Assembly: GCA_031412575.1 (NCBI GenBank) | Contig: JANODG010000088.1 | Coordinates: forward strand, 1-50,864 | Length of the DNA: 50,864 nucleotides | Origin: Bdellovibrionales bacterium | Lineage (GTDB): Bacteria > Bdellovibrionota > Bdellovibrionia > Bdellovibrionales > UBA1609 | Direction of reading: 5' to 3' | Shown: piece after piece, positions 22,745 to 48,165 of the stretch | Position numbering within the stretch: position 1 is the first letter of the stretch | How the letters are laid out: every line of letters starts with the position of its first letter | The notes under the pieces: model-generated | Databases searched by the model: none | What the model was told of the DNA's origin: nothing | What the model saw: only the letters and a program-made list of their open reading frames with translations | Made by a program: the position numbers and the translations under genes

Positions 22745-23416
22745 ATGAAAAAGTCGCCTCATGTTTTTTTACTTGAAGATAACAAAGAGCTTGGACTTTC
22801 TTTACAAGATAAGTTTACAGACTCCGGGTACACATCAAGTTGGTTCACTCATGTTGGCCAAGCAAAAACGTATCAAAATTTTCAAGACATTGATTTATTT
22901 ATATTGGATGTGGGTTTGCCCGATGGAACAGGTTTTGAATTTGCAGAGTGGTTAAAATCTCAAAAGGTAAAACAACCCATTATGTTTTTAACAGCGATGG
23001 GGCAGCCCGAAGATCGCTTAAAGGGTTATGAGCTTGGTGCAGAGGAATATATTCCAAAGCCGTTTTTATATAAAGAATTAGAAATGCGTATTAATCATGT
23101 GTTAGAAAATCACGCCAAGAATTTAATTTTCGAATTTAAAGATTTAGTGATTGATTTTGAATCCATGACTTTTAAATGGAGTAATGGCGAAATTATTTTT
23201 CCACAGTCTAAAGATCTTTTAATTTTAAAACTTTTAATTCAGAAATCGCCACAAGTTATTTCTCGGGACGAGATCTTAAATGAAGTGTGGGGAATGGATG
23301 ATTTTCCTACGGAAAGAACTGTGGATAATAGCATTGTGAGGTTGAGGCAGAGTTTGAAGGAGCATCAAGGGTGTTTGAAGTCGGTGCGTGGGATGGGGTA
23401 TCAATGGCTGGTTTGA
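22745..23416 (+). CDS. OmpR-family response regulator
   Basis: Receiver domain with LFILDVGLPDG and a winged-helix C-terminus (...VRLRQSL...VRGMGYQW). A 2-nt gap follows the kinase gene. Confidence 0.9.
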   Translation: MKKSPHVFLLEDNKELGLSLQDKFTDSGYTSSWFTHVGQAKTYQNFQDIDLFILDVGLPDGTGFEFAEWLKSQKVKQPIMFLTAMGQPEDRLKGYELGAEEYIPKPFLYKELEMRINHVLENHAKNLIFEFKDLVIDFESMTFKWSNGEIIFPQSKDLLILKLLIQKSPQVISRDEILNEVWGMDDFPTERTVDNSIVRLRQSLKEHQGCLKSVRGMGYQWLV

Positions 23417-23581
23417 TTTTTTGGTATCTTATTTTAATGAAAGTTTAATCTTCTTAAATTCCGACACGCCCATCCATGGGCTCTGCGCGAGCCGCCTGCG
23501 GCGGGCGCATCCTGCTCTCGCGAGGTCGGAATTTAAGAAGATTAAACTTTCATTAAAATAAGATTCCAAAAAATCAAACCA
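23409..23581. repeat. 173-bp near-perfect palindrome: 57-bp AT-rich arms (one mismatch) around a 59-bp GC-rich core
   Basis: Arm 23409-23465 is the reverse complement of 23525-23581, apart from T/A at one position. The core 23466-23524 contains CCGCC-TGC-GGCGG. On the minus strand this is the same GCCCGC-NGCA-GGCGG hairpin seen in the repeat family below. The left arm covers the last codons and stop of the response regulator. Confidence 0.9.
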
Positions 23582-23810
23582 AACGTGTGTATGGTTTATA
23601 CTTAGGATTTATTTTTTTATTAATTGTGTAGGTGAGTAGGATTTTAAAATAAGTAACTAAATATGTAAGTAAGTAAGTTAGTAAAAATTTAATTAATTGT
23701 TTAAAAATTTATTGGTTTTTTTTATTTATTAAAAAGATATTTTTTTAAAATTATTTGAAAATTTAAGGATATTAAAGCCTTGTTTTTGTGTGTTTAAGAA
23801 GGGAAGTCAG

Positions 23811-24830
23811 ATGAATTTGAAGTTTCAGGGTGCGTTGAGGAATGAGGTGCAGAAGTGTCCGCCGATTTGGTTTATGAGGCAGGCAGGAAGATATCATGGG
23901 CATTATCAGAATTTGAGATCGAAGCATTCCTTTATGGATTTGTGTAAGGTGCCGGAGTTGGCTTGCGAAGTGGCTTTGGGTCCTATTATGGATTTTGATT
24001 TTGATGTTTCTATTTTGTTTTCGGATTTACTTTTTCCGCTAGAAGCTATGGGTATGGGGCTTGATTATAAGCCAGGTCCTGTATTGGGATGGCATTTAAA
24101 TGCTTCGAACATACATAAATTAAAATCTGTTGAAGATTCTTTGGCTGGTGTTCAATTTCAAAAAGAGGCCGTCGTGTTAACTCGAAGAGCTTTACCTAAA
24201 GATAAAAGTCTTGTGGGTTTTGTCGGAGGGCCTTGGACTTTATTTAGTTATGCGGTCGAAGGAAGTCATAAAGATGGTTTAAAACAAACTAAAAAGTCTT
24301 TGGCCTTATTTAATCCTTTTTGTGAAAAATTACTTCCGCTTTTGATTGAAAACATCAAACTGCAATTAGCGGGTGGGGTTGAAGTGGTTATGATGTTTGA
24401 TACGTCTGTGGGTGAAATTAGCCCCTATATTTTTAAAGCTTACATTGAACCTGTGCTTTTAGGTTTAGCTCAAAAGTTTCCAGGTAAGTTAGGGTATTAC
24501 TCTAAAGGCACGACTGAGGCGCATTATTCGGTAGAACTAAAAAATGCGCCATGGGCTGGATTTGGATTTGATCACCGGTGGGATTTACCGAAGTGGTTAA
24601 AGACTGAAAAAAAGAAAGGTTTTGTTCAGGGTAATTTTGATCAGTTGTTTTTATTTCAAGATTTTTCTGACTTTAAAAAAACTTTGGACCAATATTTAAA
24701 AACTTACCAAGATATTTCTGTAGAGGCCCGTGCCGGATGGGTGTGTGCTTTAGGGCACGGTGTCCTTCCTGAAACTCCAGAAAAAAACGTTAAATACTTT
24801 GTCGAGCGCGTTAGAGAGGTGCTTTCATGA
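23811..24830 (+). CDS. hemE: uroporphyrinogen decarboxylase
   Basis: PPIWFMRQAGRY signature. The start is set at the ATG at 23811 (GGGAAG RBS). The ORF is open from the GTG at 23790. Confidence 0.92.
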   Translation: MNLKFQGALRNEVQKCPPIWFMRQAGRYHGHYQNLRSKHSFMDLCKVPELACEVALGPIMDFDFDVSILFSDLLFPLEAMGMGLDYKPGPVLGWHLNASNIHKLKSVEDSLAGVQFQKEAVVLTRRALPKDKSLVGFVGGPWTLFSYAVEGSHKDGLKQTKKSLALFNPFCEKLLPLLIENIKLQLAGGVEVVMMFDTSVGEISPYIFKAYIEPVLLGLAQKFPGKLGYYSKGTTEAHYSVELKNAPWAGFGFDHRWDLPKWLKTEKKKGFVQGNFDQLFLFQDFSDFKKTLDQYLKTYQDISVEARAGWVCALGHGVLPETPEKNVKYFVERVREVLS

Positions 24831-26170
24831 TTGATCTATTAAGTAAGTACGATGTTCCCGTACCACGTTACACTAGCTATCCTACAGTGCCTTACTGGCA
24901 AGATAACCCGACATCCAAAGAATGGCTTTCTTCCTTAGAAAAACATTTTTCTAAAGACGATGCCACTTGGTCTATGTACTTACACATTCCTTTTTGTGAA
25001 ACCTTATGTACCTTTTGTGGCTGTAACACCATCATTACAAAAGATCATAAACGTGAACATCCTTACGTAACTCACTTGTTATCGGAATGGAAAATCTATT
25101 TAGATAAAATGCCGTATATTAAAGATAAAGAATTAAAAGAGATCCACTTAGGTGGAGGAACTCCAACTTTTTTAAGTTCTGAAAATTTAGTTTTTTTGAT
25201 GACCAATCTTTTTAAAGATATTAAAAAATCCAAAGACTTTGAAGCTTCCATCGAAGTGGACCCAAGACGCACAACTTCTGATCAGCTTAAGGCCCTATAT
25301 GACATTGGGTTTCGCAGGGTCAGTATGGGTGTACAGGATTTTGATCCTGAAGTGCAACGCCTAGTAAACCGTATACAGCCAGAAAGTATGACTTTGAATT
25401 TAACCCAAAGAGCTAGGGCCATGGGTTACACTTCCGTCAATTATGATTTGATTTACGGTTTACCAAAACAAACCAAAGCAAGTATAAAGACACTTGCTGA
25501 AAAAACCTTAGAACATAAACCAGACCGCATAGCTTTATATTCTTTTGCCTTAGTGCCATGGATTAAACCTACGCATAGGCTTTACAAAGATGAAGATTTG
25601 CCAATGGGTTTAGAAAAGCGTGAGCTTTATGAAATCGCACGAACCATTTTACTTAAAGGTGGTTACAAAGAAATCGGAATGGATCACTTTGCATTGCCAA
25701 CGGATTCTTTATCGAAAGCTTTGCAAAGTAAAAAACTTCACAGAAATTTTATGGGTTACACTCATCACAGATCAGATATATTGTTGGGTTTAGGGGTAAG
25801 TTCGATTTCTGAAACTCCAGATTGTTTTCACCAAAATGAAAAAAAATATCAGATCTATCAAAGATTTATCGAGCAAGAACAAATTCCAACTCTTCGTGGG
25901 CATAAACTTTCTGATCAAGACCGAAAACGACGAGAACAGATTTTAAAACTCATGACCACTTGGGAAACTGTTTTAGATGATTTTAAACATGAAGAAGAAG
26001 TGAAAGTGTTTTTAAATGAACTGATTCAAGATGGTTTAGCTAAAGTCGAAAATCAAAAAATTATGGTGACAGAAAAAGGTCAGCCGTTTTTAAGAAACAT
26101 ATGCATGTCTTTAGATGAACGCTTGCGCTTAAATAAGCCAACTCAACAGGTGTTTTCAAAAGCGCTATGA
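24827..26170 (+). CDS. hemN: oxygen-independent coproporphyrinogen III oxidase (radical SAM)
   Basis: ATGA overlap with hemE. It has the HemN-specific PRYTSYPTVPYW motif and the radical-SAM motif CETLCTFCGC. Confidence 0.92.
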   Translation: MIDLLSKYDVPVPRYTSYPTVPYWQDNPTSKEWLSSLEKHFSKDDATWSMYLHIPFCETLCTFCGCNTIITKDHKREHPYVTHLLSEWKIYLDKMPYIKDKELKEIHLGGGTPTFLSSENLVFLMTNLFKDIKKSKDFEASIEVDPRRTTSDQLKALYDIGFRRVSMGVQDFDPEVQRLVNRIQPESMTLNLTQRARAMGYTSVNYDLIYGLPKQTKASIKTLAEKTLEHKPDRIALYSFALVPWIKPTHRLYKDEDLPMGLEKRELYEIARTILLKGGYKEIGMDHFALPTDSLSKALQSKKLHRNFMGYTHHRSDILLGLGVSSISETPDCFHQNEKKYQIYQRFIEQEQIPTLRGHKLSDQDRKRREQILKLMTTWETVLDDFKHEEEVKVFLNELIQDGLAKVENQKIMVTEKGQPFLRNICMSLDERLRLNKPTQQVFSKAL

Positions 26171-27372
26171 AGAAAGTCGCCATCATCGGATTTGGATTTT
26201 CTGGACTGTCTGCAGCTTGGGCTTTTGCAAGGCGCGGGCATGATGTGGAAGTTTTTGAAAAAGTATCAAAAATTGGTGGAATACTTCAAACTGAAAACTC
26301 TGAGTTTGGGATTATAGAAACCGCCGCCAATGCTATTTTACGCTCGGAAAACGTAAGCGTGATGGCTAAGGACTTCGATATCACCTGGGCTGAGCGAAAG
26401 AAATCTGCTAAAGCTAAATGGGTATTCACAGATAAACCAAGACGCTGGCCACTGACTACGATTGAGACTTTAAAGTTCATAAACCCGATGTTTAAATTAG
26501 CTCTGGGATCTGAAAGTATAAAACCAAAAAGTTTAGAGTCCGTCGCTAATTGGGGACAAAGGGTTTTTAAATCTCCAGTGTTTGTCGATCATCTTTTGGG
26601 TCCTGCACTTCAAGGAGTTTATGCAAATTCATCTGATCATCTTTCAGCCTCTTTATGTTTAAACACTTTTTTTGCCACCCAAAAAATAAGACATGAAGGA
26701 TCACACGCACCAAAAAAAGGAATGTCAGACTTTTTTAATTCTGGATTAAAATTTTTAACGAAACATAATAATTTTAAATTAAATCTAAATTCTCAAATCA
26801 CAAATTATGAAAATTTAGATGCAGACATCATTTTAGACACGCGCCCAGACCCTATAAACGTAAATTATTTAAGTGTTTATTCACTAACATTATTTTTCAG
26901 AACAGAAGACCGCCCGAAGTTTCAAGGGTTCGGTTGCTTGTTTGCGAAATCTAAAAGCGTACTAGGAGTCTTATTCAACTCCGACATCTTCGAAGACCGC
27001 ACTAAAGAAGACCTTTTTAGTGAGACCTGGATTATCACGCCCGCTGCAGGCGGAAAAGTTCCAGCGAAGAGCGCAGGGCGTGCGCAGCCGCCCGAAGAGC
27101 GCTCGAGTGAACTAGACATGATCAAACACACCCTCGCTTTTCGCGAACAAGCCTTCGGCATAAAATCCGAACCTGTATTCTCGAAGCTCACTCATTGGCC
27201 ACAAGGTATTCCCAACTACAGCCTTCAACATGAGACTTTCTTACAGGATAAATTTAAATTTGAAACTTCGATGGGACAGACTAAGATATTCAAAATCGGA
27301 AACTACACGGGGCAAATTGGTCTCAATAAAATGTTAGAAGAAAATGTAAAATTAGCTCGTAAATTCAGCTGA
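26167..27372 (+). CDS. hemY: FAD-dependent protoporphyrinogen oxidase carrying an in-frame repeat-element insertion
   Basis: ATGA overlap with hemN. It has the dinucleotide-binding N-terminus KVAIIGFGFSGLSAAW...EVFEK and sits between hemN and hemH. Residues ~292-318 (AAGGKVPAKSAGRAQPPEERSSELD) are encoded by the GC-rich repeat. Confidence 0.72.
   Translation: MKKVAIIGFGFSGLSAAWAFARRGHDVEVFEKVSKIGGILQTENSEFGIIETAANAILRSENVSVMAKDFDITWAERKKSAKAKWVFTDKPRRWPLTTIETLKFINPMFKLALGSESIKPKSLESVANWGQRVFKSPVFVDHLLGPALQGVYANSSDHLSASLCLNTFFATQKIRHEGSHAPKKGMSDFFNSGLKFLTKHNNFKLNLNSQITNYENLDADIILDTRPDPINVNYLSVYSLTLFFRTEDRPKFQGFGCLFAKSKSVLGVLFNSDIFEDRTKEDLFSETWIITPAAGGKVPAKSAGRAQPPEERSSELDMIKHTLAFREQAFGIKSEPVFSKLTHWPQGIPNYSLQHETFLQDKFKFETSMGQTKIFKIGNYTGQIGLNKMLEENVKLARKFS
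27039..27118 (+). repeat. GC-rich multi-hairpin repeat, copy A (intragenic, in-frame in hemY)
   Basis: GCCCGCTGCAGGCGGAAAAGTTCCAGCGAA-GAGCGC-A-GGGCGTGCGCAGCCGCCC-GAA-GAGCGCTC-GAGTGAACTAGACA. It shares both terminal boxes and the central hairpin with copies B-F. Confidence 0.9.
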
Positions 27373-28470: not shown

Positions 28471-28604
28471 AGTTTTAAAAAACGCGCAATTTTAATTAAA
28501 TTTTAATTGTGCTGAATTTTGTCAGCTGAATTGACAACCCACAAAAGAAGTAGAAATCGCAAAATAAAACCAAGAGGAATATTCCCCCTCAGTTAACCAA
28601 ACTA

Positions 28605-29744
28605 TTATTTACAAGCAGCTAGCATAATAGTTTTAAGCTCTACCAAAGCTTCTCTAACCTCATATTCTAAGGGCAACCTTTGGGCTAACGAACTACTTAG
28701 TTGAAATGACGATGTATATTTTTGTTTAAGGTTTTTTTCTTCGAGAATATCATTAATATAATTTTCTAATGATCCACAATTATCAAATATCAATCGATTA
28801 CTTGATAAAAAACGATAAGCAAGACTTAACATAATTAGGCGTTCTCTTTTTGATTTTGAAATGCTAGAAATTCGTTCTTCAATTTCGGTATAAAAGTCTT
28901 TTAATCGCTCTATATCTTCATAATTAGAAAGCACTTTGCCATCTTTGGTGATCTTATTATAGTAATTAGAGGCTGAATTAAACCCCCTTTGAAATGCATC
29001 GGCTGGGGATACGTCTAAGAATGTACCAACTCGAACAATACCAATGCCTCGCGATTTTAACCAATAAAGTGTTTCTAAATCCACAGCCTTCGTTGTTGGA
29101 ATAACTATTAACGAATCCGTGTTTGAGTAATGTCTAGAAAAGTTCACGTTTATAGATATCAAATAATCTGGTTTATTTAAGTAATAGTTATCTATACCCA
29201 TGCTGAACACGATATCTTCGTGATCTTTGAACAATACTTCAAACTCTTCTTTATAATCAATCGCACGACCTACTTTGAACAAATAATCATTCCCATCAGC
29301 AGAAGTTAACATTTCAGCATGAAGTGCATAAAAGAACGATAGCTTTTGCAACCAATCATAACTTATCCCATTCTGAGTATATCTTCTTATCAATTTGTGA
29401 GTGAATGATTGTAAGACTTCAGCAGACGCTTTTACGTCCTCTCGATCAGATTTATTTATTAATCCAGTTAAAGAATCAAGGAGGCTATTTAAAGTATGAA
29501 GTACTGGCTCAGATTTTAAAACAGCTTTTTTCTTCCAATTGATAAATGGGATTGTAAATCTCGGCTTAGAGTTTCTTATCTCTTGAGCCACTTGATAAAT
29601 TTCATCTCTGACTTGATATCTAAATTCTTCTGAATCTTTAGCGCCCTTGTCAGAGCGTAAATAAATGTCACACTGTATAGTTTTGGCGTGGGTTGTAAAA
29701 GAAAAAAGTAAAAGAACTAAATAAACTTTAATGTATTTTTTCAT
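28605..29744 (-). CDS. hypothetical secreted protein
   Basis: 379 aa with signal peptide ...TTHA/KT. No family recognised. Confidence 0.5.
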   Translation of the reverse strand: MKKYIKVYLVLLLFSFTTHAKTIQCDIYLRSDKGAKDSEEFRYQVRDEIYQVAQEIRNSKPRFTIPFINWKKKAVLKSEPVLHTLNSLLDSLTGLINKSDREDVKASAEVLQSFTHKLIRRYTQNGISYDWLQKLSFFYALHAEMLTSADGNDYLFKVGRAIDYKEEFEVLFKDHEDIVFSMGIDNYYLNKPDYLISINVNFSRHYSNTDSLIVIPTTKAVDLETLYWLKSRGIGIVRVGTFLDVSPADAFQRGFNSASNYYNKITKDGKVLSNYEDIERLKDFYTEIEERISSISKSKRERLIMLSLAYRFLSSNRLIFDNCGSLENYINDILEEKNLKQKYTSSFQLSSSLAQRLPLEYEVREALVELKTIMLAACK

Positions 29745-30235
29745 GACATCCTCTATTTAAATTTTTTTTATTGGAAATTTGCATAATCTAAGCCAATTTT
29801 AGTAATCGCTAGATCAATTCAAAACCGCAACAAAATAAAAAGCTATTCAAAAGTGCCAAATTTTGACCCATTGAAAGCTTAGCTTCGTTCAAAATGGTCT
29901 CTTGGCTTGTCTTCCAATTCATTTTTATTTCGGCCGGATTAGTGGCGAGAGTATATTTTACACCGAAAAGAGGGCCTGCTCATTAAATAATATTTAGGTC
30001 CCCTTTGATCTGTAAATGAAGAAATAGCCCGTATCTCCGGTTTTTTGGTGCAATCTATGGGAAACAAGCTGGGACATAATAAGTGGTTATATACTCCATT
30101 TGCCCTTTTGATTGGACCTATATCCTTCTTTTCTGTACTTCTACAACCCGGGATTAACGTTGACTTCAATTGCAGAAGTTCACGTTGTTTTAGAAATAGT
30201 TTTTCTAAATTAAAAGTGATGAGGGGTTTCAAATC

Positions 30236-31048
30236 GTGAATAGAATTTGTTATATTTTGCTGACACTTTTATTGAGCACCACAAGTTTTTCGGCTGATTT
30301 TGTCAAAGTTGGTATTTTTGATATTAGCTTTTATAAAGTTGAACAACTCATCCCTGAAAGCCTAACTCCAACAACAATTATGACCCCACACAATTTATAC
30401 TCTCCGCATGGTGCATCTGTGGCCTCGCTTATCTTTAATCCTGAATATGGTGGCTCGTCTCACGGGAAGTTATTGCTGATGAACACGGGTATCCAGTATG
30501 AAGACTTTTACAAAGGTATTCAAAAAGCCATTGAGCTTAAAATCCAAGTCATAAGTATATCTTTATCTTTAATAAACTCTTCGATTGCAGAATTAATCAA
30601 TCAAGCCAACCAAGATCATGGGATCCTGTTTGTCGTTTCGGCTGGTAACGCTGCCCAAAGAAAAGGGCGCGCGCTTCCTTCGTACTATAAAGATCTTAAA
30701 GCGATCATAGCGTCTTGCATCGACCTTAACGGTGATGTTCCTGATTTTGCTCAGCTCGATTCAAGCGTTGACATTCTGGCTCCGTGTGGTCGCTCTAATA
30801 TTATGACTCAGATTTATGAACTCCGTCGTGGGGTCATCGATCATCCTTTTGGAGGGACAAGTGCCGCAGTTCCGCAAGTCGTATCTTTTATGATTGATGA
30901 GCTACACAATAACAGTAGTCTGAATCTTGACGATTTTAAACAACTTATGAAATCTCAGGCGAAGTACTTTTATAATTACGAAGGTTCTGTTTATCCCGTT
31001 TTAAATAATATTCAAAAAATTAAAGTTCAACCAGAACTCTCCATGTGA
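30236..31048 (+). CDS. compact subtilisin-like (S8) serine peptidase
   Basis: 270 aa, GTG start, signal peptide. The triad contexts are GIFDIS (Asp), SPHGASVASL (His), SAGNAA (oxyanion Asn) and GGTSAAVPQV (Ser). Confidence 0.7.
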   Translation: MNRICYILLTLLLSTTSFSADFVKVGIFDISFYKVEQLIPESLTPTTIMTPHNLYSPHGASVASLIFNPEYGGSSHGKLLLMNTGIQYEDFYKGIQKAIELKIQVISISLSLINSSIAELINQANQDHGILFVVSAGNAAQRKGRALPSYYKDLKAIIASCIDLNGDVPDFAQLDSSVDILAPCGRSNIMTQIYELRRGVIDHPFGGTSAAVPQVVSFMIDELHNNSSLNLDDFKQLMKSQAKYFYNYEGSVYPVLNNIQKIKVQPELSM

Positions 31049-31159
31049 TTTCGTTTGGAAGACCTAAGTGTGAAAGGATCTTCTTAGAACTCACGAAATT
31101 ATTACATTTATTGTACATACCTTAAGACACCTCGACAGTAGTTTGATACTTACTATTTT

Positions 31160-32632: not shown

Positions 32633-32674
32633 GGCTATTCTCTTCAGGTACACCAATTGCAACGCTGAAGACAT

Positions 32675-33718: not shown

Positions 33719-33720
33719 GC

Positions 33721-37167: not shown

Positions 37168-38274
37168 ATGCTTGTGTTTCTTTTTCTTTTTTTAAGTTCG
37201 CATACGCAAGCTTTTGAAAAACAATTGCAAGCTTTCGTAGTTCAAAAAGAAAAAGTCGCCAAAGAGTTTGGTGATGAGGTCTTACAAGCACTTTATGACT
37301 ATCGAAAAGAAGTCGAAAAAAATGCGTATCAAAATACGCTTCAACTGTGTGAAGGCTATCGTCGTGCAAAAGGTCTTGGGCCACACCCAGCTCACGGCAA
37401 GTATATGTTCTCGGCAAACGATGCGGCATCGGCATGGGGTAAGATTATTGTAGAAGGTGCCAAACAACCCATATCTGGAACATTTGGACAGAAGGCTGAC
37501 TTCTTACATTACGGTAGATACGGCATGTTCAGTTGGGACAGTTGGTTTCAGTCCATGTACACGATGTACTTAGTGAACTCGTTTGGTTTTTTAGGTGGGG
37601 CAGTTCATTGTTTAGGTACCATAGATGAAAGTGAAATTCAAAAATTCGCGCTAGCGATTGTGGATGTCGATATCGCAGCGTCGTCGATCACGATAGCTGG
37701 CGGTCTTATTGTTACTTTTTTTATTCCCGAACTGCTTTTCCCTAAAATTGTTCAAGCCACTAAATTTGTATTTCGTCCGGTGGTAAAGTTATTTAGTTTA
37801 ATGGGGTTTAGAATAGGAAATACGGTCCCTTTAAAAGTTGCTGGTATTACAATTAGCGGAGTTATAGCAGACAACTTTTTGATCTACTTAGAAAATAAAG
37901 ATCAATTTCAAACCGAATTACAAGATTTGATTAATCCGGACAGTGATGCAGGAAGAGATTCTGCTCAGCGGAAACGGTTTCTACTTCTGACCAAAACATT
38001 TCAGTTATTTTATAAATTATATCAAGACGAAAAAAAGTTAAGAGAACAAAGTGGCAGTGGAGCATGCCAAGCTTGTCAAAATCTTTACAAACCCTATTAT
38101 GAATATTTAATCGAGCATTATAGTAAAGAACTTTTAATAACCACAAAGGCAGATTTTGAAAATTTGTCCTCGAAATATTTTCTTTCTCAAGAAGAAACTC
38201 TTTATTTCGAATTATTAAATGCCTATTTACCCATTTTAAATGAACATTTTCTTATTTCTTTCTCGAACTTTTAA
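37168..38274 (+). CDS. hypothetical multi-pass membrane protein
   Basis: 368 aa. It starts 4 nt after the previous stop (coupled). Signal peptide plus at least 3 TM helices. No family recognised. Confidence 0.5.
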   Translation: MLVFLFLFLSSHTQAFEKQLQAFVVQKEKVAKEFGDEVLQALYDYRKEVEKNAYQNTLQLCEGYRRAKGLGPHPAHGKYMFSANDAASAWGKIIVEGAKQPISGTFGQKADFLHYGRYGMFSWDSWFQSMYTMYLVNSFGFLGGAVHCLGTIDESEIQKFALAIVDVDIAASSITIAGGLIVTFFIPELLFPKIVQATKFVFRPVVKLFSLMGFRIGNTVPLKVAGITISGVIADNFLIYLENKDQFQTELQDLINPDSDAGRDSAQRKRFLLLTKTFQLFYKLYQDEKKLREQSGSGACQACQNLYKPYYEYLIEHYSKELLITTKADFENLSSKYFLSQEETLYFELLNAYLPILNEHFLISFSNF

Positions 38275-38422
38275 TTGAACATAAGCTTAAGGCTTCGACG
38301 AACGTCTAGACTGAATTAATAATTATTTAATAAAATTTATCCAAATCAAAAATATCAACTCTGTAAGTTTAAGAATTAGAATTAAATTTTTATGTTTGAT
38401 CTTTTTATGTCGATATAAAACC

Positions 38423-40483
38423 ATGAGCCAATCCGCACTACAAAAAAATGAAGCCGAAGTCATTGAAGATCAAATTTTAAACCCGGAAGAGGAATCTGCC
38501 CAAATTGCAAATTTTGGTTTGGAAAAACCGGCAGGTCAAACTTCCAATAATAATCCAGAAAATCCCTCTGAAGCTTTTTTAACTTTTTTAAATCTTTACG
38601 AAAAAGATAAAAAAGAGGGGATTCCAAATTCTAAAACTGACATTGATGATCTAAATTCCAAGGAGCTTTTTTTAAATGATGTGGCCAGCCAACTTAAATC
38701 AGAATTTATTGGTCTAGATCAACAAATTGATAAAATCATAAATACATTACGTCCTTGGTATTTAATCCCTAAATCTTTAAATAAGCCCGTAATTTTATCT
38801 TTGTGGGGGATGTCTGGTGTTGGTAAAACAAGTTTGGTTTATCGCTTGGTTGAAAAATTAAATTTCGAAAGTACTTTTTTTAAATATGATTTGGGTAAAA
38901 TTTCTGATGTTCAAAGCGGAATGGGATATCATCTTTCATATTTTGCTAATCGCCAAAGTGTTTTATTCTTTGATGAAGTTCAAATGGCCAGAACCTTAGA
39001 TGCTGTAGGGCATGATATTGATCGCCCCCAACTTCGTGATTTCTGGACTTTATTAGACACGGGAATGCTTCCTATTTTATTCACTGAAATTGTTAGAATG
39101 AGAAACGACATCAAAAGCAGATATCAAGGTTTTGTCGCGAATCCTTATGGGCCTGAACTTTTAATGACAGATTATGATTTTGATTATTTAGCACCGGTCT
39201 TAGGGTTAAGCCGGGACTATAATACGCTTTTAAAAAAGTGTGTTGTCGACGACACCAATCGTTTGATGAATTGGATCATTAACGAAATAGAAAAAAAGAT
39301 TTCAAAAAACGTTTATGAAGATCACACCAAGGCTTTAATCATTTTAGCAGGTAACATTGACGAAGCGTATTCGCAGTTGATGACGGTAGAGCCTGATGAG
39401 TTTACGGCCGAAGAGCTTAAAGAAAATTTGAACACTGTGACGCCTACAAAAATTAAAAAGGGTTTACTGACTCGATTTAGAACCGAGCAAGTCGCAAGAA
39501 TGGGGACTTCTTTAATATTGTTTCCCACACCTTCAGAAAGTTCGTATCAAGGAATTATTAAGCAAAAGCTTTCTAGAATTGAAAACAAAATCAAAAAGGA
39601 TTTTGTTTTTGAATTTAAATTCGAACAATCAGTGCACGATATGATTTATAAAAAGGGTGTCATTCCCACTCAAGGTGTCCGCCCCATTTTATCTATGATC
39701 TCTGAACAGGTGGAATCTAGATTACCAACTTGGATTGTTGAAAGTGCAAAAAATGGATTTTCAGAATACAGCGTGAACTTCGACGGAGCTAAAAATGCTT
39801 TTACAATCAGTCACAAAAATAAAACCATATTTACAGATGTGCTATTAACGGAAATTGAAAGTATCAAAATTAAAATTCCTGATGCTAAATTCATTGAATA
39901 CTTAGCGATACACGAAGCTGCACATTTGGTTGTAGGGATTAGCTTAATGGGGATGTTGCCTCAACGAATAATTTTTAAAGAAAGTTTTGCTGGAAATGTT
40001 ATGCCTCAGGTCAGATTTAGACCTACATCCCTTTTAACTGCAAAAATTTCCATGGATTTTGTCGCAATGAACTTAGCGGGCTATGCGGCTGAAATTAAAA
40101 AGTACGGTAAGGAAGGTTTAAGTTCAGGGGCAACTATGGATCTTAAATCTGCAACAGGTTTAGTATCCCAAATGATCATGGAAATGGGTATGGGATCGCA
40201 CATAGGTGTCACACTGCCGCACCCAGATCTGGTTCACAACATCAAATCGATGCAAGCGGCCGACGACGAAGCCAAAGAAAAACTTCTTAAACAGGCCTAC
40301 GTGACTGCAGAACAAGAACTTAAAACACAATCCTTGTTTTATGATCACGTTGTTGAAGAACTAAAAACAAAACACTGTTTACCTCAAGAGCGCTTAGCCG
40401 AATTGCTGTTCAAACACTTCGAAGCCACAGACGAAGAAAAAGTAAATATCGTCAATCGTAAAAACCACAAGTATATGGATTAA
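38423..40483 (+). CDS. soluble AAA+/P-loop ATPase fused to an FtsH-type (M41) zinc-metallopeptidase domain
   Basis: Walker A is GMSGVGKTS and Walker B is VLFFDEVQ. The C-terminal AIHEAAHLVVG (HEXXH) ...NLAGYAAEIKKYG...SGATMDLKSATGLVSQMIMEMGMG parallels the FtsH protease domain. The N-terminus has no TM helix. The start is set at MSQSAL. Confidence 0.78.
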   Translation: MSQSALQKNEAEVIEDQILNPEEESAQIANFGLEKPAGQTSNNNPENPSEAFLTFLNLYEKDKKEGIPNSKTDIDDLNSKELFLNDVASQLKSEFIGLDQQIDKIINTLRPWYLIPKSLNKPVILSLWGMSGVGKTSLVYRLVEKLNFESTFFKYDLGKISDVQSGMGYHLSYFANRQSVLFFDEVQMARTLDAVGHDIDRPQLRDFWTLLDTGMLPILFTEIVRMRNDIKSRYQGFVANPYGPELLMTDYDFDYLAPVLGLSRDYNTLLKKCVVDDTNRLMNWIINEIEKKISKNVYEDHTKALIILAGNIDEAYSQLMTVEPDEFTAEELKENLNTVTPTKIKKGLLTRFRTEQVARMGTSLILFPTPSESSYQGIIKQKLSRIENKIKKDFVFEFKFEQSVHDMIYKKGVIPTQGVRPILSMISEQVESRLPTWIVESAKNGFSEYSVNFDGAKNAFTISHKNKTIFTDVLLTEIESIKIKIPDAKFIEYLAIHEAAHLVVGISLMGMLPQRIIFKESFAGNVMPQVRFRPTSLLTAKISMDFVAMNLAGYAAEIKKYGKEGLSSGATMDLKSATGLVSQMIMEMGMGSHIGVTLPHPDLVHNIKSMQAADDEAKEKLLKQAYVTAEQELKTQSLFYDHVVEELKTKHCLPQERLAELLFKHFEATDEEKVNIVNRKNHKYMD

Positions 40484-40484
40484 A

Positions 40485-40599
40485 GCCCGCAGAAGGAAAA
40501 GTTCCGCCCGCGGCAGGCGGAAAAGTTCCAGCGAGTTGGCCTTAAGGGCGTGCGAAGCCGCCCTAAAGGAAGGCCAACGAGTGAACTAGACAGCGCAAC
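40485..40599 (+). repeat. GC-rich multi-hairpin repeat, copy C (archetypal)
   Basis: GCCCGCAGAAGGAAAAGTTCC-GCCCGCGGCAGGCGGAAAAGTTCC-AGCGAG-TTGGCCTT-AA-GGGCGTGCGAAGCCGCCC-TAAAGG-AAGGCCAA-C-GAGTGAACTAGACAGCGCAAC. It begins 1 nt after the TAA stop of the upstream gene. Confidence 0.92.
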
Positions 40600-40723
40600 A
40601 ACTACCAACTTCCACTCAACATGTTAAATAGTTCAACAGCTCCTATCGCTCATAAATCACTAAATCCCTTGCTGTCTTGGCATAAACAATGCTTAGTTAA
40701 TCCTGATCCTAGAGGGCGATTCA

Positions 40724-42262
40724 ATGTACGTACGGACATTTCGATTTTTACTTTTCTGGACACTAAGTCATTTCTTTGTCTTTGCGACGTCTTGGGGTAA
40801 TTCCGAAAGTATTCACATTTCCTTTGCAGGCTGCAGACAATTTCAGGTTAAAGGTGAACTTCCATCAAGTTTAGGGGATCAAATCGTGATGGCGTCTTCC
40901 TTAAAAGTTGATGAGCGTTGGATCAAGGACTTAGAGTCAGTTTTCCTTCAACATAATCAAAATTCCGCTCACACTTTAGATCATATATTAAGCTCTCCAG
41001 CTTTCTTTCATTATCAAGCAGTCCCTTTTAATCTGTCGATGATTAATAGCTCAACCCAAGAAGCCTCAATCCATGGATCTTTTGAGTTAAACTTTAGAGC
41101 CAGTGATTTCGCTTTTGCAAAGAAAAATAATTTTATCTGGGTTAGATCAAAGGATTTTAATTTTTTAGTGCTGATCACTCCAGGCACCGATGCTTGTGAT
41201 AAAATTAGTTTTAAGGTTCAGTCGGCCTTCACGAAAGATCTTCCAAAATTCCAAAAAGTGTTATTAGCGGCACCCACCCAAAAAATCTACAAAGCCAAAG
41301 ACATGCCTAAGGATCTTGAGCCTAAAAATTTTAAACAAGTGGCAGACTCCATGCGCAGTTATGCACAACAAAACTGTTCAGGCACTTTTATCTCAACCGA
41401 TGGTTATTACTTAACGGCATTGCACTGCATAGGTCCTGTGCTGGAAAAAATGAAAAAAGCCAAAGTGCTTTCGTGGCCATTAACTACAGAAGACCCCGGG
41501 CTTAACGCCAACTTTGCTGCACGAACAATCGTCCCAATCTTACCTTTGGATAAAAATATGAAAGTATCCAGCACAGCTGATCCTTCAATGTCCGCGAAGC
41601 TTATGGGCATTGAAGATGGTGAACCCTTAATTGCTGCGATAGGAACTTCGGGTTTTACGATTCGACCTTCGATCGAACACTGGTCCGAATATCCAGAATC
41701 TATGCGCCAATTTTTTATCCTTAATGATATGGACTGGGTCATTCTTAAGTACGACTTAAAAGATAAAAAAGTACCATGCACACGGCTGGCAAATTTAAAC
41801 TCGAACTTCGGTGATCCGCTGTGGGCAATGGGTTTTCCCGCCAAAGATATTTCACAACCATCCGAGTTCTCGAATAAAAATAGGGAGCTATTCGTTTCTT
41901 TAGGTCATCATCGAAAAGACTATACAGAACTTGCGCCTCATTTGGGATTTATTGGAGAGTACATTCATGACAGTGAGTACTTCATCAGTCATTTGGCGAC
42001 AAACCAAATGCTTAACAACGAACTTTCCATACTGTCAGACCATTTAGCCACCGCCGGCATGAGTGGTGGGCCATTGATCAACGAAGAGGGGGAATTGACG
42101 GGAGTGTTGTTCGAGGCTTCTCATCGTTATAAAACAGCCGAATATTCATCCCTGTACACCAACACTATGCTTCGCTCGATTCGATCCGACGTGATTCAAA
42201 AAGAAGTTATAAAACAAGTTGGCGACGTTAAGTCCAATGCTATTTTTAGCTGTGCTTTATAA
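40724..42262 (+). CDS. secreted trypsin-like (S1/Trypsin_2) serine peptidase with a ~200-aa N-terminal domain
   Basis: 512 aa with a signal peptide. The triad contexts are YYLTALHCIGP (His), DMDWVILKY (Asp) and TAGMSGGPLIN (Ser). Confidence 0.7.
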   Translation: MYVRTFRFLLFWTLSHFFVFATSWGNSESIHISFAGCRQFQVKGELPSSLGDQIVMASSLKVDERWIKDLESVFLQHNQNSAHTLDHILSSPAFFHYQAVPFNLSMINSSTQEASIHGSFELNFRASDFAFAKKNNFIWVRSKDFNFLVLITPGTDACDKISFKVQSAFTKDLPKFQKVLLAAPTQKIYKAKDMPKDLEPKNFKQVADSMRSYAQQNCSGTFISTDGYYLTALHCIGPVLEKMKKAKVLSWPLTTEDPGLNANFAARTIVPILPLDKNMKVSSTADPSMSAKLMGIEDGEPLIAAIGTSGFTIRPSIEHWSEYPESMRQFFILNDMDWVILKYDLKDKKVPCTRLANLNSNFGDPLWAMGFPAKDISQPSEFSNKNRELFVSLGHHRKDYTELAPHLGFIGEYIHDSEYFISHLATNQMLNNELSILSDHLATAGMSGGPLINEEGELTGVLFEASHRYKTAEYSSLYTNTMLRSIRSDVIQKEVIKQVGDVKSNAIFSCAL

Positions 42263-42449
42263 ATAGTGAACACAATTATAGGGCCGAAAAACGTCACCCA
42301 AATCCCTGATTGAATACCTTAACGACCAAATTTGACCAAAAAACCCATCAATTCAGCCTAATTACATATTTAATCTGGCTTAGAATTTGCCTTATTAGAC
42401 CGAGCTAAGTCGCAGAACGATAAGGTCCACTAAGCTCTAGGTTGGAGGC

Positions 42450-43625
42450 ATGAAAATGCAACATTTAATAGTAAAACGGATTTTAAAAGGCTCAATGCTT
42501 ACGTTTCTTTTTTCAGGCTTAATGGCTTGTAAAGAATCTGATGGATTTTCATCTGCAAAAGGTGGAATCGAAGGCTTTACACATGCACGTGTACAACCGG
42601 TTGTGTTGATACCATTAACTGAAGAAGCCGCTCAAGGCATTCAAGATCGTTTAGAAGCTTTAGCTAGTTTAGAAGAAAACATCGAACTTAAAGATGAACG
42701 CATTCAACAATTAGAGGACGAACTTGCTGAACGAGTAAGTGCTTTGGATGCAAAGATTCTTGAAAATCAAACTAAACTTTTAGCAATTCAATCACAAAAC
42801 GGCGACATCACTCCAAATGATGTTCGTAAGATGAATCAAGAGCGCGCGGAATTAAAAGCACAAGTTGACCAATTTACGGAAGAGTATTTAGAAAATGTTG
42901 AAAATTACAAAGCTGAATTCGAAACCATGATCGCAAGCTTTTCTGAATTAGTGACTGAGCTGTCGAAATATGAATCTACGGAAGAACTTGAAAGTTTTAG
43001 AACTTTGATTTTAGAGAAGTTAAAAGTTTTAGAAGCTGACCGTGATTTAGTTTTAGCGCGTATCTCAGAAAAAGAATCTTCAATTTCAGAACTTCAATCA
43101 CGAATTGCAGATCTTGAAGGCGACACAAGCCCGGAAGCTATATCTGAACTTAATGGATTAAAAGAAGACCTGGTTGAAGAGCAATCAAGTCTTGCAGAAG
43201 ACGCAGCAATAGCTGGTGCATTGAATGGTTTACTTGAATCTTCTAACGAAGTTTTAGCTCCAGTAACTCCAGTAATGCCAACAGGTGCAGCTTTGGATCA
43301 GCCATCGACGCCAGTAGCAGGTGATGTTCCGGTGATCAGTAACCAGTTAACTCCAGCAGCACAGGCTATGGAAATAAATCAACAGATCAAGGATCTTAAG
43401 GCTGCTAACGAAAGTTTAAACGCCATTCTTGCTTCGTTAAACGCTGAGATTAAACAGAAGGATGATGCGATTGCATTAAACAACACGACTCAATTACAAG
43501 TACAAAAGAGTGGTTTGTTAACAGAAAAATCAGAAACTTTGGAAGCCATCACAATGAATGAAGCTAAAATCGCTCCATTAAAAGTGGCATTAACTCGCCT
43601 CCAACGAATGATCGTTGGTATGTAG
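42450..43625 (+). CDS. coiled-coil lipoprotein
   Basis: 391 aa with lipobox FSGLMAC and a long Glu/Leu/Lys heptad-like region. The TAG stop abuts repeat copy D. Confidence 0.6.
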   Translation: MKMQHLIVKRILKGSMLTFLFSGLMACKESDGFSSAKGGIEGFTHARVQPVVLIPLTEEAAQGIQDRLEALASLEENIELKDERIQQLEDELAERVSALDAKILENQTKLLAIQSQNGDITPNDVRKMNQERAELKAQVDQFTEEYLENVENYKAEFETMIASFSELVTELSKYESTEELESFRTLILEKLKVLEADRDLVLARISEKESSISELQSRIADLEGDTSPEAISELNGLKEDLVEEQSSLAEDAAIAGALNGLLESSNEVLAPVTPVMPTGAALDQPSTPVAGDVPVISNQLTPAAQAMEINQQIKDLKAANESLNAILASLNAEIKQKDDAIALNNTTQLQVQKSGLLTEKSETLEAITMNEAKIAPLKVALTRLQRMIVGM

Positions 43626-43741
43626 CCCCACGCAGTAGGAAAAGTTCCGCTCCGCGCAGCGGGAAAAGTTCCAGCGAAGTGCGCAGGGCGTGCGCAGCCG
43701 CCCGAAAAGCGCACGAGTGAACTAGACATCGCCCCCGCGCA
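43625..43741 (+). repeat. GC-rich multi-hairpin repeat, copy D
   Basis: CCCCAC-GCA-GTAGG-AAAAGTTCC, CCGC-GCA-GCGG-GAAAAGTTCC, AGCGAA, the outer stem GTGCGC/GCGCAC around GGGCGTGCGCAGCCGCCC, then GAGTGAACTAGACA. Confidence 0.92.
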
Positions 43742-43747
43742 CAAAGC

Positions 43748-43781
43748 AAAAAAAAGACACCTATCCAGGTGTCTTTTTTTT
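43748..43781 (+). terminator. intrinsic terminator (A8-GACACCT-ATCC-AGGTGTC-T8)
   Basis: Perfect 7-bp GC-containing stem with a 4-nt loop and a T8 tail. It lies immediately after repeat copy D. Confidence 0.8.
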
Positions 43782-43973
43782 GTTATCATTTAAACTTTCA
43801 AAACCTTAGACCTGATAATTCATTACAAATTTATAGGGTGAAGCTCTTATGAGACATTACGTTTCAGCTAAGTTATTACTTTACCGTCCGCTCTGTCATA
43901 TTTTCAATGCAACTTTCCTTACAGATTTAATGAATATACACTTTTCTTATTTAAACTTTTAGGAGGTAATTTT

Positions 43974-44438
43974 ATGATTAAATCTTTTTTTGTTGTTCTA
44001 TCGTTTGCATGTTTGGGAACGGCCGCACAAGCTGTTAACTTAGATGGTTACTATCAGACATATGGCTGCGTTAACTATAAAGGGCAAAATGATACTCTAT
44101 GGTCGACGGTTGTTTCAATTCACCTAAGTTCAGATGGGCAAATAGCTGTTTCTGATCAAGTATTTGAAGGTCCAGATTGTAAGACCGCATATTTTGCGAG
44201 CCACAAATACGGAACTTATTTAGTCACTGGCGATAATCTTCGATTCAGCATGAATAAATCTAATTTTATCGTTCTTTCAAATTCTGAAGAGCTAAAAGAT
44301 ATTCCATCAAGTAGCGACGACGTAATCAAAGAAGAAGGCTACTATCTTTTAGAAACCTCATTTACTGCAGCAACCCGCGATGTGTCTATAAACTACGGCG
44401 GATTCAGATTGGGTAAAATTGGAATTTCTAATAAGTAG
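43974..44438 (+). CDS. hypothetical secreted protein
   Basis: 154 aa with an AGGAGG RBS and signal peptide ...AAQA/VN. Confidence 0.55.
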   Translation: MIKSFFVVLSFACLGTAAQAVNLDGYYQTYGCVNYKGQNDTLWSTVVSIHLSSDGQIAVSDQVFEGPDCKTAYFASHKYGTYLVTGDNLRFSMNKSNFIVLSNSEELKDIPSSSDDVIKEEGYYLLETSFTAATRDVSINYGGFRLGKIGISNK

Positions 44439-44512
44439 AATACGGATACAAACCCTTTGTTTATAATCTAATTTAAAATTGTTATATTAAATTTAGCCTT
44501 TTCATTTCAGGC

Positions 44513-46705: not shown

Positions 46706-47890
46706 TTAATTAGCAGGATTAAAAACTATACCTTCAAATACTCTTTCGTTGTTTTCATTATTACGAATCATATAAGAAAAAGGTCCATTGATTTTCATGG
46801 AAGTTACCATTGGAGCGCTAACTACTTCCATTCCTCCAATTGTTACTGCTGCGGCCTCTGCACCTTCTTCATTAACAATGATTTTAGCTTTCTGGAGAAT
46901 TTCAGAAATTTGAAGATTTTCGCTGGACATGTTTGATAATGCCCCAGCTGCGAATAAACTCGAAAGACCTACTTGATTTAATTTATCTTCGATACTCTTA
47001 ATTTCGGTCTCAATAGTAAATTTTGGAATTTCTAAAAAAAGATCTCCACCTAAATTACTTTTTTCAAGTTCGGAATTGGCTTTGGAATTAATAATATAAT
47101 CCTTAAAAATTCTTTGCAAACGCTTTCCAGATTTGTATGAAAATCCAGGATCTTGATAGTTTTCATCATCATAATCGTATTCTTTATACTGTGCGGGCAT
47201 TGCGATGATCATCGAATATTTGTCACCTTTAAATGGTAGCTCTAAAACTACAACTTTATCTTTTTCATTATACGCAAAATTGTAAGCTTCGCCAGACGTC
47301 ATAGTGTCGACTAAACCTGCGCCATGAAAATCCTTAGGCTCGGTTAAAGCTTCGTTAAATTTATCCTTCCATTCTCCTTTGAAATAAATGGCGTTTGCCA
47401 AGATAGTCGCTAAATCTGGGGTTACGAAATCTTGATTAATAACTTTTGTTATTAAATTATTTGTGTTGTCTGCGGCCCAAGAGTTTACGCTATCGACAAC
47501 TTCACTTTTATTATTCACGTCCATAATTTCCGGCACGACGGAAAATTTTGAAGACACATCTGAAATGTAGCTTGGAAGAAGATTGTATTTTTGATCGACC
47601 CAAATTTGATAGCCCACTAATACACTTACGCCAGGAGATTGCTCTTTTAATGCAGAGATATCTTTAGCTTTGTTTTCCAAAGATGTTCCATTCCAATAAG
47701 AAACCAATTCATTCTGTTGCTTCTGACCTAGGCCGAAGCTGATTAAAGATAATAAACCATCGACAGATGTGTTTGAAAAAACGTAATTTTCTTTTTGCTT
47801 TAATTTTTCGGCCATAACCGTTTCACTTAAGGTGTTGGCTTGGACTGCAGTACTTATAAATAATATGGCTACTAAATATTTAAAACTCAT
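46706..47890 (-). CDS. secreted serpin (serine protease inhibitor)
   Basis: 394 aa with a signal peptide. It has the NAIYFKGEWK serpin motif, the hinge/RCL EEGAEAAAVTIGGMEVVSAP, and a C-terminal ...F...I....G.V.NP pattern. Confidence 0.88.
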   Translation of the reverse strand: MSFKYLVAILFISTAVQANTLSETVMAEKLKQKENYVFSNTSVDGLLSLISFGLGQKQQNELVSYWNGTSLENKAKDISALKEQSPGVSVLVGYQIWVDQKYNLLPSYISDVSSKFSVVPEIMDVNNKSEVVDSVNSWAADNTNNLITKVINQDFVTPDLATILANAIYFKGEWKDKFNEALTEPKDFHGAGLVDTMTSGEAYNFAYNEKDKVVVLELPFKGDKYSMIIAMPAQYKEYDYDDENYQDPGFSYKSGKRLQRIFKDYIINSKANSELEKSNLGGDLFLEIPKFTIETEIKSIEDKLNQVGLSSLFAAGALSNMSSENLQISEILQKAKIIVNEEGAEAAAVTIGGMEVVSAPMVTSMKINGPFSYMIRNNENNERVFEGIVFNPAN

Positions 47891-47980
47891 AATTTTCTCC
47901 TTTTAGGTTTTGTTTATTAAAAGGACATTTATCAGCACGCTATAATTAACAGCAGTTAGTCTTGGTTAGTTTGTAAATAA

Positions 47981-48080
47981 GAAAAGTTCCAGCGAGCACT
48001 TGGGCGTGCGTACGGAAGTCCCAGCGAAGCGGACTGAACGGTAGCCGCCCGAAAAGCGCACGAGTGAACTAGACAGCGCC
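47981..48080 (+). repeat. GC-rich repeat, copy E (chimeric, with a nested 33-nt hairpin in the central loop)
   Basis: GAAAAGTTCCAGCGAG-CACTTGGGCGTGCG-[TACGGAAGTCCCAGCGAAGCGGACTGAACGGTA]-GCCGCCCGAAAAGCGCAC-GAGTGAACTAGACAGCGCC. The 5' half resembles copy B. The 3' half is identical to copy D. Confidence 0.85.
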
Positions 48081-48165
48081 GTCCGCAGGACGAAAAGTTC
48101 CAGCGAGGACTGGCAAGGGCGTGCGAAGCCGCCCGAGAAAGCCAATCCGAGTGAACTAGACAGCA
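48081..48165 (+). repeat. GC-rich repeat, copy F (tandem to E)
   Basis: GTCC-GCA-GGAC-GAAAAGTTCC-AGCGAG-GACTGGC-AA-GGGCGTGCGAAGCCGCCC-GAGAAA-GCCAATC-C-GAGTGAACTAGACAGC. Confidence 0.9.

Follow-up and report, generated by a model that had tools for sequence, protein, structure and literature searches.

A probable family of small, non-autonomous palindromic DNA repeats in uncultured Bdellovibrio-like bacteria

Contig JANODG010000088.1 of a Bdellovibrionales bacterium (GenBank assembly GCA_031412575.1), analyzed here as one window of 50,864 nucleotides (nt), carries repeated copies of a GC-rich element whose ~65-nt core, when single-stranded, forms one long hairpin made up of helices P1, P2, and P3. 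We conclude that these copies are probably selfish palindromic DNA repeats, small and non-autonomous, which form a clade-specific family of the kind exemplified by repetitive extragenic palindromic (REP) sequences and Rickettsia palindromic elements (RPEs). The family is new as a sequence family; the REP- or RPE-like lifestyle is already known. An original prediction, made from the letters of the window, had described a dispersed repeat family with modular hairpins and had named REP/BIME elements and RPEs among its closest analogies. The family is indeed real, and these two analogies are the right ones.

The reality of the family is evident from counts of two conserved boxes that are far above chance. 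The 3′ box, GAGTGAACTAGACA, is present in the window in six exact copies and in one further copy with two mismatches, all on the plus strand. The chance expectation is 0.22, and seven copies were reached in none of 100 shuffles. The 5′ box, GAAAAGTTCCAGCGA, occurs in six exact copies, again all on the plus strand, where 0.30 would be expected. A repeat finder applied to the window recovers the same families as the box counts, and a covariance model identifies six full cores (27053–27121, 34844–34951, 40520–40595, 43663–43731, 47981–48078, and 48092–48165) with E values ranging from 4e-23 to 2e-08. As proposed earlier, the elements contrast with their surroundings in G+C content (0.51–0.66, versus 0.34–0.39 for the surrounding DNA and genome background). 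The six full copies and one degenerate copy that had been listed are all found in place (Table 1), although the degenerate one is only a fragment. What had been described as an inverted related module at 23466–23524 reduces to a single 15-nt hairpin, which is nevertheless of the family's type.

From 5′ to 3′, the core begins with a GAAAAG tail, followed by P1 (AGUUC paired with GAACU) and an asymmetric internal loop wherein CCAGCGA lies opposite GAGU. P2 comprises 4 to 9 bp and P3 comprises 5 to 7 bp with a bulged T. The hairpin is capped by GCGAAGC, GCGCAGC, GCGTAGC, or GCTTTAGC, forming a GNA loop or tetraloop of the d(GCGAAGC) type, which is a classic and very stable DNA mini-hairpin, and the core ends with the 3′ tail UAGACAGC. 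Ahead of the core stand zero, one, or two small modules, each composed of GC, a 5-bp stem, GCA, the stem complement, and AAAAGTTCC. There are also mini-elements of ~30 nt in which P1 closes CA plus GCGAAGC. In addition, a sister module of the form ACGGAAG-P1-CAGCGAAG-P1′-CTGAACGG is nested in P3 loops, both in the window (48013–48045) and in loci of other assemblies (here designated by L and a number; L009, L010, L014, L019, and L020).

Base pairing in the core is supported by nucleotide covariation, which we counted on 57 model-aligned copies; this alignment was fitted to the covariance model and so somewhat favors the structure. The value for paired cells is 95.8%, compared to 26–40% when the partners are slid, and double-sided changes are seen in 13 of the 20 pairs. 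The observed values were reached by none of 500 shuffles. All three helices covary, such that their sequences change freely while complementarity is kept. For example, P1 appears as AGTTC/GAACT, AGCGC/GCGCT, AGCAC/GTGCT, and AGTCC/GGACT. This cross-genome covariation bears out the anatomy deduced earlier from the window (small GCA-loop hairpins with AAAAGTTCC, AGCGA, a variable outer stem, a conserved inner hairpin, and GAGTGAACTAGACAGC), including the proposal that AGTTC pairs with GAACT to close the whole element. Among 42 typical copies there are ~20 distinct middles with a median identity of 66%, the commonest type being present in all three genomes examined, and the boxes are near-invariant. 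The unpaired motifs GAAAAG, CCAGCGA/GAGU, and UAGACAG (within the 3′ tail TAGACAGC) are invariant. That the conserved letters are almost all unpaired, whereas the helices vary freely, points to what a mobilizing or binding protein must read.

The evidence for this structure is covariation rather than energy, since folding energies of single copies are unexceptional for such GC-rich DNA (z-scores of −0.2 to −3.0). RNAalifold applied to a plain MAFFT alignment did not recover the helices because stem lengths differ between copies. Detection instead relied on a hand-set structure and the covariance model, for which one base was added to six of the ten seed rows so that all had equal length. The padded seed was used for detection only, and pair counts were made on the real sequences. 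The helix cells of the 57 copies include 16 G-T or T-G and 15 A-C or C-A combinations. This near equality indicates that neither strand is favored and offers no hint that selection acts on one strand at the RNA level.

Two further ideas regarding the structure were set aside. One was that the variable stems are copied from flanking DNA, as guides or captured targets would be. The longest word that a copy shares with its own flanks has a mean length of 8.8 nt, compared to 7.1 nt for the flanks of other copies, but tandem neighbors drive this difference, and thus there is no clear signal of flank copying. Hammerhead and other small ribozymes and K-turn motifs were rejected likewise, because their consensus features are missing or Rfam gives no match.

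The family is a previously undescribed one that is confined to a small clade of uncultured Bdellovibrio-like bacteria. A scan for both exact boxes, covering 185,579 species with one genome apiece, yielded 26 stretches, all of them in two Bdellovibrionales metagenome-assembled genomes (MAGs), GFS_9291 and JTS-AC215. A looser genome scan that allowed any P1 sequence added only one more stretch. The window matches none of the 26 loci and therefore represents a third genome. Across these three genomes (the window and the 26 loci, 256 kb), the covariance model yields 57 hits. It also finds copies in a Logan assembly (L063), and a variant mini-element, GGAAAACCGCCAGCGTAGCGCGGTAGACAG, is present in the MAG MFD03250 (L029). 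Hence the consensus is not restricted to the window, as the family is present in four other assemblies. No hit was obtained with the covariance model in 17 loci of more distant Bdellovibrionia or in three closer relatives (L060, L061, and L065), and scans of viral contigs and of JGI metagenome contigs each returned no matches.

Searches for known relatives were similarly negative, in agreement with the earlier statement that the sequence matches no known repeat family. Rfam at its gathering threshold gives no hits in the window or in seven loci, and a permissive Rfam scan of one copy reaches only 11.6–13.4 bits against thresholds of 40–49.5. The 12- to 13-mers of the boxes are absent from the searched literature, in which no report links Bdellovibrio with such repeats. 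A 73-residue concatenation of the in-frame peptides matched nothing at E≤1 among 5.8 billion proteins. Apart from the elements, the window contains ordinary genes, among them a heme-synthesis cluster and genes for proteases, a serpin, and ribosomal protein S4. Its HemY-like protein is 51–59% identical to proteins from uncultured Bdellovibrionales and Pseudobdellovibrionaceae, the next relatives sharing only ~34% identity.

Comparisons between related genomes reveal that the elements occupy different positions in each. L003 shares synteny with the hem region of the window (~72% DNA identity), and the orthologous pairs L015/L024, L002/L011, and L010/L020 share 70–78% DNA identity. Each of the five filled sites that we aligned in detail is empty in the partner genome, with no site in common, and block coordinates suggest two more filled sites with empty counterparts. 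Exact-protein matches to strain variants of the window genome lie on contigs of only 1–1.4 kb, on which no junction polymorphism could be seen. In the window, hemN and hemY overlap by ATGA (26167–26170). The same two genes lie 150–160 nt apart in L030 (9850–10000) and L063 (9840–10000), where the intervening DNA is an element array whose last part is just ahead of the hemY start codon and ribosome-binding site. This insertion must have uncoupled the two cistrons.

Head-to-tail arrays occur in L002, L020, L023, L030, L063, and the window (47981–48165), and inverted arrangements are found only in L005 and L025. Some tandem arrays join unlike subtypes, and nested insertions and dead fragments also occur. 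These features, together with a conserved element sequence at unconserved positions, point to a mobile family that is served by a trans-acting factor.

To describe placement, we took a census of 40 arrays, 31 of which are intergenic with a co-oriented upstream open reading frame (ORF) in view. By an automatic rule, 17 of these 31 begin within 9 nt of the stop codon of that ORF, and this number rises to 21 after correction by hand for missed small hairpins. The stop is mostly TAA, sometimes TAG, and in one instance TGA. In L005 and L023 the TAA overlaps the element itself (T|AAGAAAAGTTCC). Four copies in the window, at 33721, 34805, 40485, and 43625, obey the stop-codon rule. The earlier description of copies located after stop codons, inside a gene, and in tandem is supported.

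Eight of the 40 arrays lie within ORFs, all of them in sense. These are located in HemY (the window), in HemC (L003 and L063), at two sites in MutS (L009), within the CLM domain of PheT (L019), in an ORF of L009 that appears GlnD-like by eye and has no Pfam match, and at the N-terminal end of a 134-residue ORF (L011). For MutS and PheT, Pfam domains are recognized on both sides of the insert. The host ORF of L003 also lacks a Pfam match and was named HemC by synteny with window ORF 18784–20457, which carries a porphobilinogen-deaminase domain. Two of the three sense frames end in the 3′ box (at TGA and TAG), and the open frame reads SELD. The 5′ box is translated as KSSSE or KVPAK. In the alignment of the window HemY, 13 homologs lack the inserted segment, as does the syntenic ortholog in L003. 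Relative to 12 homologs and to that ortholog, the HemY of the window has a net gain of 16–18 residues after the conserved FSETWI.

These observations can be accommodated by a scheme in which an enzyme that acts in trans, encoded elsewhere in the genome, would copy or move the element after recognizing the conserved unpaired motifs on the folded single strand. Our best guess is an enzyme of the HUH/Y1 class (RAYT- or IS200/IS605-like), and the scheme would then be one of single-strand recognition with a TAR-proximal target. Insertion would take place just 3′ of TAA/TAG or AAG with no visible target duplication. Selection would subsequently keep those copies that lie in sense after a stop codon, or in frame in tolerant protein loops. 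The sense orientation might be favored for two reasons. First, the complementary strand presents a hairpin followed by UUUUC(UUU), which is terminator-like. Second, only one sense frame is free of stops, and this frame would encode a hydrophilic peptide (KSSSE...SELD).

Several observations weigh against this explanation. No mobilizing enzyme was found: among the 46 ORFs of the window, 33 match only Pfam families unrelated to mobility and 13 match none, with no transposase or integrase among the matches. Searches by tblastn of the 256 kb, using IS200 TnpA and E. coli RAYT sequences as queries, detect no Y1 transposase below E=0.2. The absence of transposase, RAYT, and integrase genes from the window had been noted before. 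The element has no GTAG/CGTC tag, as the 4-mers ahead of the small hairpins are mixed (AAGC, TAGC, TCGC, and others). Its invariant ends are GAAAAG and TAGACAG(C), often with TAA or TAG 0–4 nt upstream, although not as a fixed tag. No terminal inverted repeat extends beyond the 5-bp P1, since GAAAAG... and ...TAGACAGC are not inverted repeats of one another. No direct repeat indicative of target-site duplication is seen at the junctions, where the 70–78% identity of the available genomes makes the exact boundaries of empty sites unreadable.

Other points on this side concern numbers and the form of the insertions. With ~30 exact-box copies in GFS_9291, copy number is modest. The conservation of the boxes is partly built in because the loci were retrieved by exact boxes, and only the window copies and the secondary copies of each locus are independent of this selection. 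The HemY insert of the window seems to replace ~9 native codons, and two other cases are similar (~7–12 overall). Such replacement is not predicted by simple cut-and-paste. Finally, the enrichment at stop codons over other nearby TAA/TAG triplets, ~20-fold by our rough estimate, is not fully explained by target preference plus selection.

An alternative that we consider unlikely is that the elements are functional RNA modules of 3′ untranslated regions, wherein the hairpin is bound by a clade-specific protein or blocks exonucleases, and spread is secondary. Each copy would then set mRNA stability or the relative expression of neighboring cistrons, like some E. coli REPs, and the REP literature argues likewise. 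Sense copies are indeed located right after the stops of many unrelated genes and between cistrons, as with hemN and hemY in L030 and L063, and the combination of invariant unpaired motifs with covarying helices is the usual signature of a structured RNA. At least the 34805–34951 copy is probably transcribed, as it is followed by a native AT-rich terminator-like hairpin (~34958–35003). However, none of the sites is conserved in the five comparisons between related genomes, and eight arrays reside within coding sequences. G-U cells are not in excess over A-C cells on the sense strand, there is no Rfam match, and selfish DNA typically shows tandem or nested copies and dead fragments, as seen here. 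The balance of G-T and A-C cells and the presence of copies inside MutS, PheT, HemY, and HemC place the constraint at the DNA level rather than at the RNA level.

It is also doubtful, and slightly more so, that placement is set by the insertion mechanism and not by selection, such that, in transcribed DNA, the element targets the TAA or TAG of genuine stop codons on the sense strand. Conceivable routes include single-strand transposition into the non-template strand after the ribosome leaves, or an RNA-mediated step. This reading is kept open by three observations. By a rough estimate, true stop codons are enriched ~20-fold over the other TAA or TAG triplets of the spacers concerned. A single ORF runs into an element, ending at the TGA of the 3′ box, versus ~20 that end just before one. 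Moreover, a count by eye finds TAA or TAG 0–4 nt upstream of nine of the 13 copies that are not at a stop codon, suggesting that TAR belongs either to the target or to the end of the element. If correct, this would be a mobile element that targets stop codons.

Across the 40 arrays, orientation tracks the upstream gene, and almost every copy has a co-oriented gene as its 5′ neighbor. From the copies at 47981–48165 it had been inferred that orientation is independent of the host transcript; this does not hold for the family, in which that pair is the exception. In L025, two convergent genes each carry their own sense copy. An orientation set by the replication strand, as for IS200/IS605, was also considered. 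Of 53 copies, 42 are on the locally G-rich strand, and the same 42 agree with the majority gene direction, so the two variables are confounded. The convergent pair of L025 favors gene direction over replication strand, and the uniform plus orientation of all seven window copies is compatible with either.

In the antisense reading, UUUUC comes after the hairpin in every copy, and copies that lack a small hairpin give UUUUCUUU. At least seven U (T in the DNA) are found in the 12 nt after the hairpin in 25 of 45 antisense copies, compared to none of 45 in sense. The elements could be one-way terminators or insulators that work on the complementary strand, blocking opposing transcription into 3′ ends and terminating convergent genes, but we regard this as improbable. 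A consensus scan does flag the small hairpins as terminator-like on the minus strand. The 47981–48165 pair and the copy at 5076–5144 of L007 lie 2–15 nt past the stop of an opposite-strand gene, and the pair in L025 forms a two-way arrangement between convergent genes. Yet most copies are found between co-directional genes, where no convergent transcript is expected. The helix beside the U-tract is a weak, A/T-rich one of 5 bp that is followed by a large internal loop, a poor arrangement for intrinsic termination. Copies within ORFs are left unexplained, and the scan as a whole shows no excess (15 sites versus 14.3 in shuffles). We infer instead that antisense insertions in genes or operons would cut transcripts short and be lost. 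Selection against these terminator-like antisense copies may explain the sense bias. In-frame reading of the antisense strand would, furthermore, yield peptides rich in Cys and Phe.

Recombination sites of the integron attC type, or of another tyrosine recombinase, marking the 3′ ends of cassettes, are a most improbable explanation: like attC sites, the elements are imperfect palindromes that fold as a single strand, with conserved ends, an unpaired central loop or spacer, and a variable middle, just past stop codons in the orientation of the gene, but they have boxes GAAAAGTTCC ... GAGTGAACTAGACAG in place of RYYYAAC/GTTRRRY core sites, no integrase was found among the 33 Pfam-matched window ORFs (the other 13 of 46 match no family), the genes beside them are not cassettes but core housekeeping genes whose synteny is conserved, and some copies lie inside genes or in tandem arrays that contain no gene.

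Among known systems, REP families cluster at ≤20 bp from the 3′ end of the upstream ORF, at a variable distance from the next gene, and their GTAG ends often supply the TAG stop. REP copies within ORFs are reported as well, particularly in repair and tRNA-synthetase genes (Di Nocera et al. 2013, PMC3733652). Consequently, neither stop-codon adjacency nor in-frame insertion into repair and tRNA-synthetase genes is new. The Bdellovibrionales family resembles REP, BIME, and REPIN sequences in being composed of short, GC-rich, imperfect palindromes that reach tens to hundreds of copies, form clusters, and keep their stems by compensatory change. Shared features of placement include proximity to the 3′ end of the upstream ORF, ends that sometimes overlap the stop, and some in-frame copies in DNA-repair and tRNA-synthetase genes. 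Unlike GTAG/CGTC-tagged REPs, the present elements carry no such tag. Their unit is longer (~65 nt), with three helices and a large conserved internal loop, and includes small accessory hairpins and nested modules. Their host is AT-rich, no RAYT was found in the window and 26 loci, and their arrays run head to tail, whereas REPINs are typically inverted pairs.

RPEs (Ogata et al. 2000, cited in PMC10969869) provide the classic example of insertion in frame. Like the Bdellovibrionales family, they are palindromic repeats that reside in AT-rich genomes and insert in frame in housekeeping genes, adding a hydrophilic peptide in loops, and no transposase is known for either family. The two sequences are unrelated as far as can be judged, and the host phyla differ. 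The exact boxes are not present in Rickettsia, given that the species-wide scan matched only the two Bdellovibrionales MAGs. The Bdellovibrionales elements are also shorter (65–150 nt with modules, versus ~100–150 nt for RPEs) and are mostly intergenic after stops, with only ~8 of 40 arrays in genes. BOX elements of Streptococcus pneumoniae (PMC10969869) likewise join a variable number of a small module to fixed end modules and are likewise transcribed with neighboring genes. Their sequence and module sizes differ from those of the Bdellovibrionales family.

The GC clusters of yeast mitochondria and the byp inserts of Magnusiomyces mitochondria are GC-rich hairpin modules of AT-rich genomes that can be nested, arranged in tandem, or located in coding sequence. 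All of these features recur in the Bdellovibrionales family. Both of these are organellar, and the byp inserts are skipped by the ribosome, whereas the in-gene copies described here preserve an open frame, the simplest reading being that the ribosome translates through them. BOX elements are not known to show systematic placement at stop codons or in-frame insertion in essential genes.

We file the family beside, and not within, the named ones because the REP tag and inverted doublets are lacking, the elements do not conform to miniature inverted-repeat transposable elements, and the mobilizing enzyme was not found. How REP- and RPE-like repeats spread, and how they come to lie at stop codons or in frame, is only partly understood, and the Bdellovibrionales family offers a compact case. 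It presents the Rickettsia style of decorating housekeeping proteins (HemY, MutS, PheT, and HemC) with repeat peptides in a free-living, predatory-bacterium lineage. In practice, such elements also fragment assemblies, give rise to false ORFs, and introduce odd loops into proteins predicted from MAGs.

Table 1. Copies and fragments of the hairpin repeat in the window, with covariance-model scores
Position	Strand	Composition	Score	Context
23486–23500	−	Single small hairpin of the family type (reverse complement GCCCGCCGCAGGCGG) without the AAAAGTTCC tail; weak 15-nt resemblance only		
27039–27121	+	Small hairpin module (GCCCGCTGCAGGCGG + AAAAGTTCC) and core	93.5 bits, E 1.1e-22	In frame in protoporphyrinogen-oxidase-like gene (HemY) 26167–27372; translated as PAAGGKVPAKSAGRAQPPEERSSELD
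33721–33784	+	Degenerate fragment: hairpin resembling the small module, CACCGAAGGTG, then AAAAACC and 3′ box GCGTGAGCTAGACAGCGC (2 mismatches)	No match at E≤1	Begins 2 nt past TAA of ORF 32675–33718
34805–34951	+	Two small hairpin modules and core; extra hairpin (~34866–34905) in inner hairpin	42 bits, E 1.9e-08	Begins immediately past TAG of ORF 33875–34804
40485–40595	+	Two small hairpin modules (first imperfect) and core; outer stem of core 9 bp, GTTGGCCTT/AAGGCCAAC	65.6 bits	Begins 2 nt past TAA of FtsH-like ORF 38396–40483
43625–43731	+	Two small hairpin modules and core	95.1 bits, E 4e-23	Begins at TAG stop of ORF 42450–43625
47981–48078	+	Core without small hairpin, TAAATAAG ahead of core; nested mini-module GGAAGTCCCAGCGAAGCGGACTGAACGG in inner-hairpin loop	52.7 bits	Between two minus-strand genes
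48079–48165	+	One small hairpin (CGTCCGCAGGACG) and core	66.4 bits	Head-to-tail with 47981–48078; 3′ end ~15 nt from stop of minus-strand DUF2461 gene 48180–48896

Seen from the DUF2461 gene, the 47981–48165 pair appears as hairpins followed by U-tracts. The extra hairpin at 34866–34905 has GCTGTACAGCT and GCATGTGGCCGT in common with a module of the MAG MFD03250 (L029, 16880–16915), which indicates that hairpin modules have been exchanged or inherited across genomes independently of the core. The ORF listed at 34774–35877 (367 residues) starts inside the preceding gene and spans both this element and the terminator-like hairpin that follows it, and its trypsin-like match is confined to residues 185–313. 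The listed start is probably false, an example of an ORF artefact induced by the repeat.

The small hairpin at 23486–23500 lies in the GC-rich center of a separate structure, a 173-nt AT-rich palindrome (23409–23581) that follows a response-regulator gene. Further long AT-rich palindromes with GC-rich centers, perfect or near-perfect and 170–440 nt in length overall, are present in L013 (5665–6100), L007 (2294–2550), L017 (3751–3984), and L018 (2882–3122). In L007, L013, and L017 the center is a copy of the hairpin element. These structures look like a second, larger class of palindromic repeat or like two-way terminators. In L009, another short repeat, ...CAGTCGAGTTTCAC..., with the in-frame translation QSSFTS(C/S)PAD, is found downstream of the copies at 2664–2740 and 328–398, following the element both in MutS and in the neighboring large ORF that appears GlnD-like by eye. 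This suggests that there are further in-frame repeat families in that genome.

Most element copies of the window lie within or beside a variable stretch that extends from ferrochelatase to ribosomal protein S4 (~28500–44500). It spans ~16 kb here versus 4–6 kb in relatives (L060 and L061) and contains trypsin-like proteases, a subtilase, the FtsH-like ATPase, and ORFs without a family. Elsewhere in the window, an AhpC/TSA peroxiredoxin ORF (786–1574) has ~110 N-terminal residues encoded by Lys/Ala-rich 12-nt repeats (AAAAAAGTAACA..., at 795–1032), a stretch that resembles a histone-H1-like tail fused to a redox enzyme.

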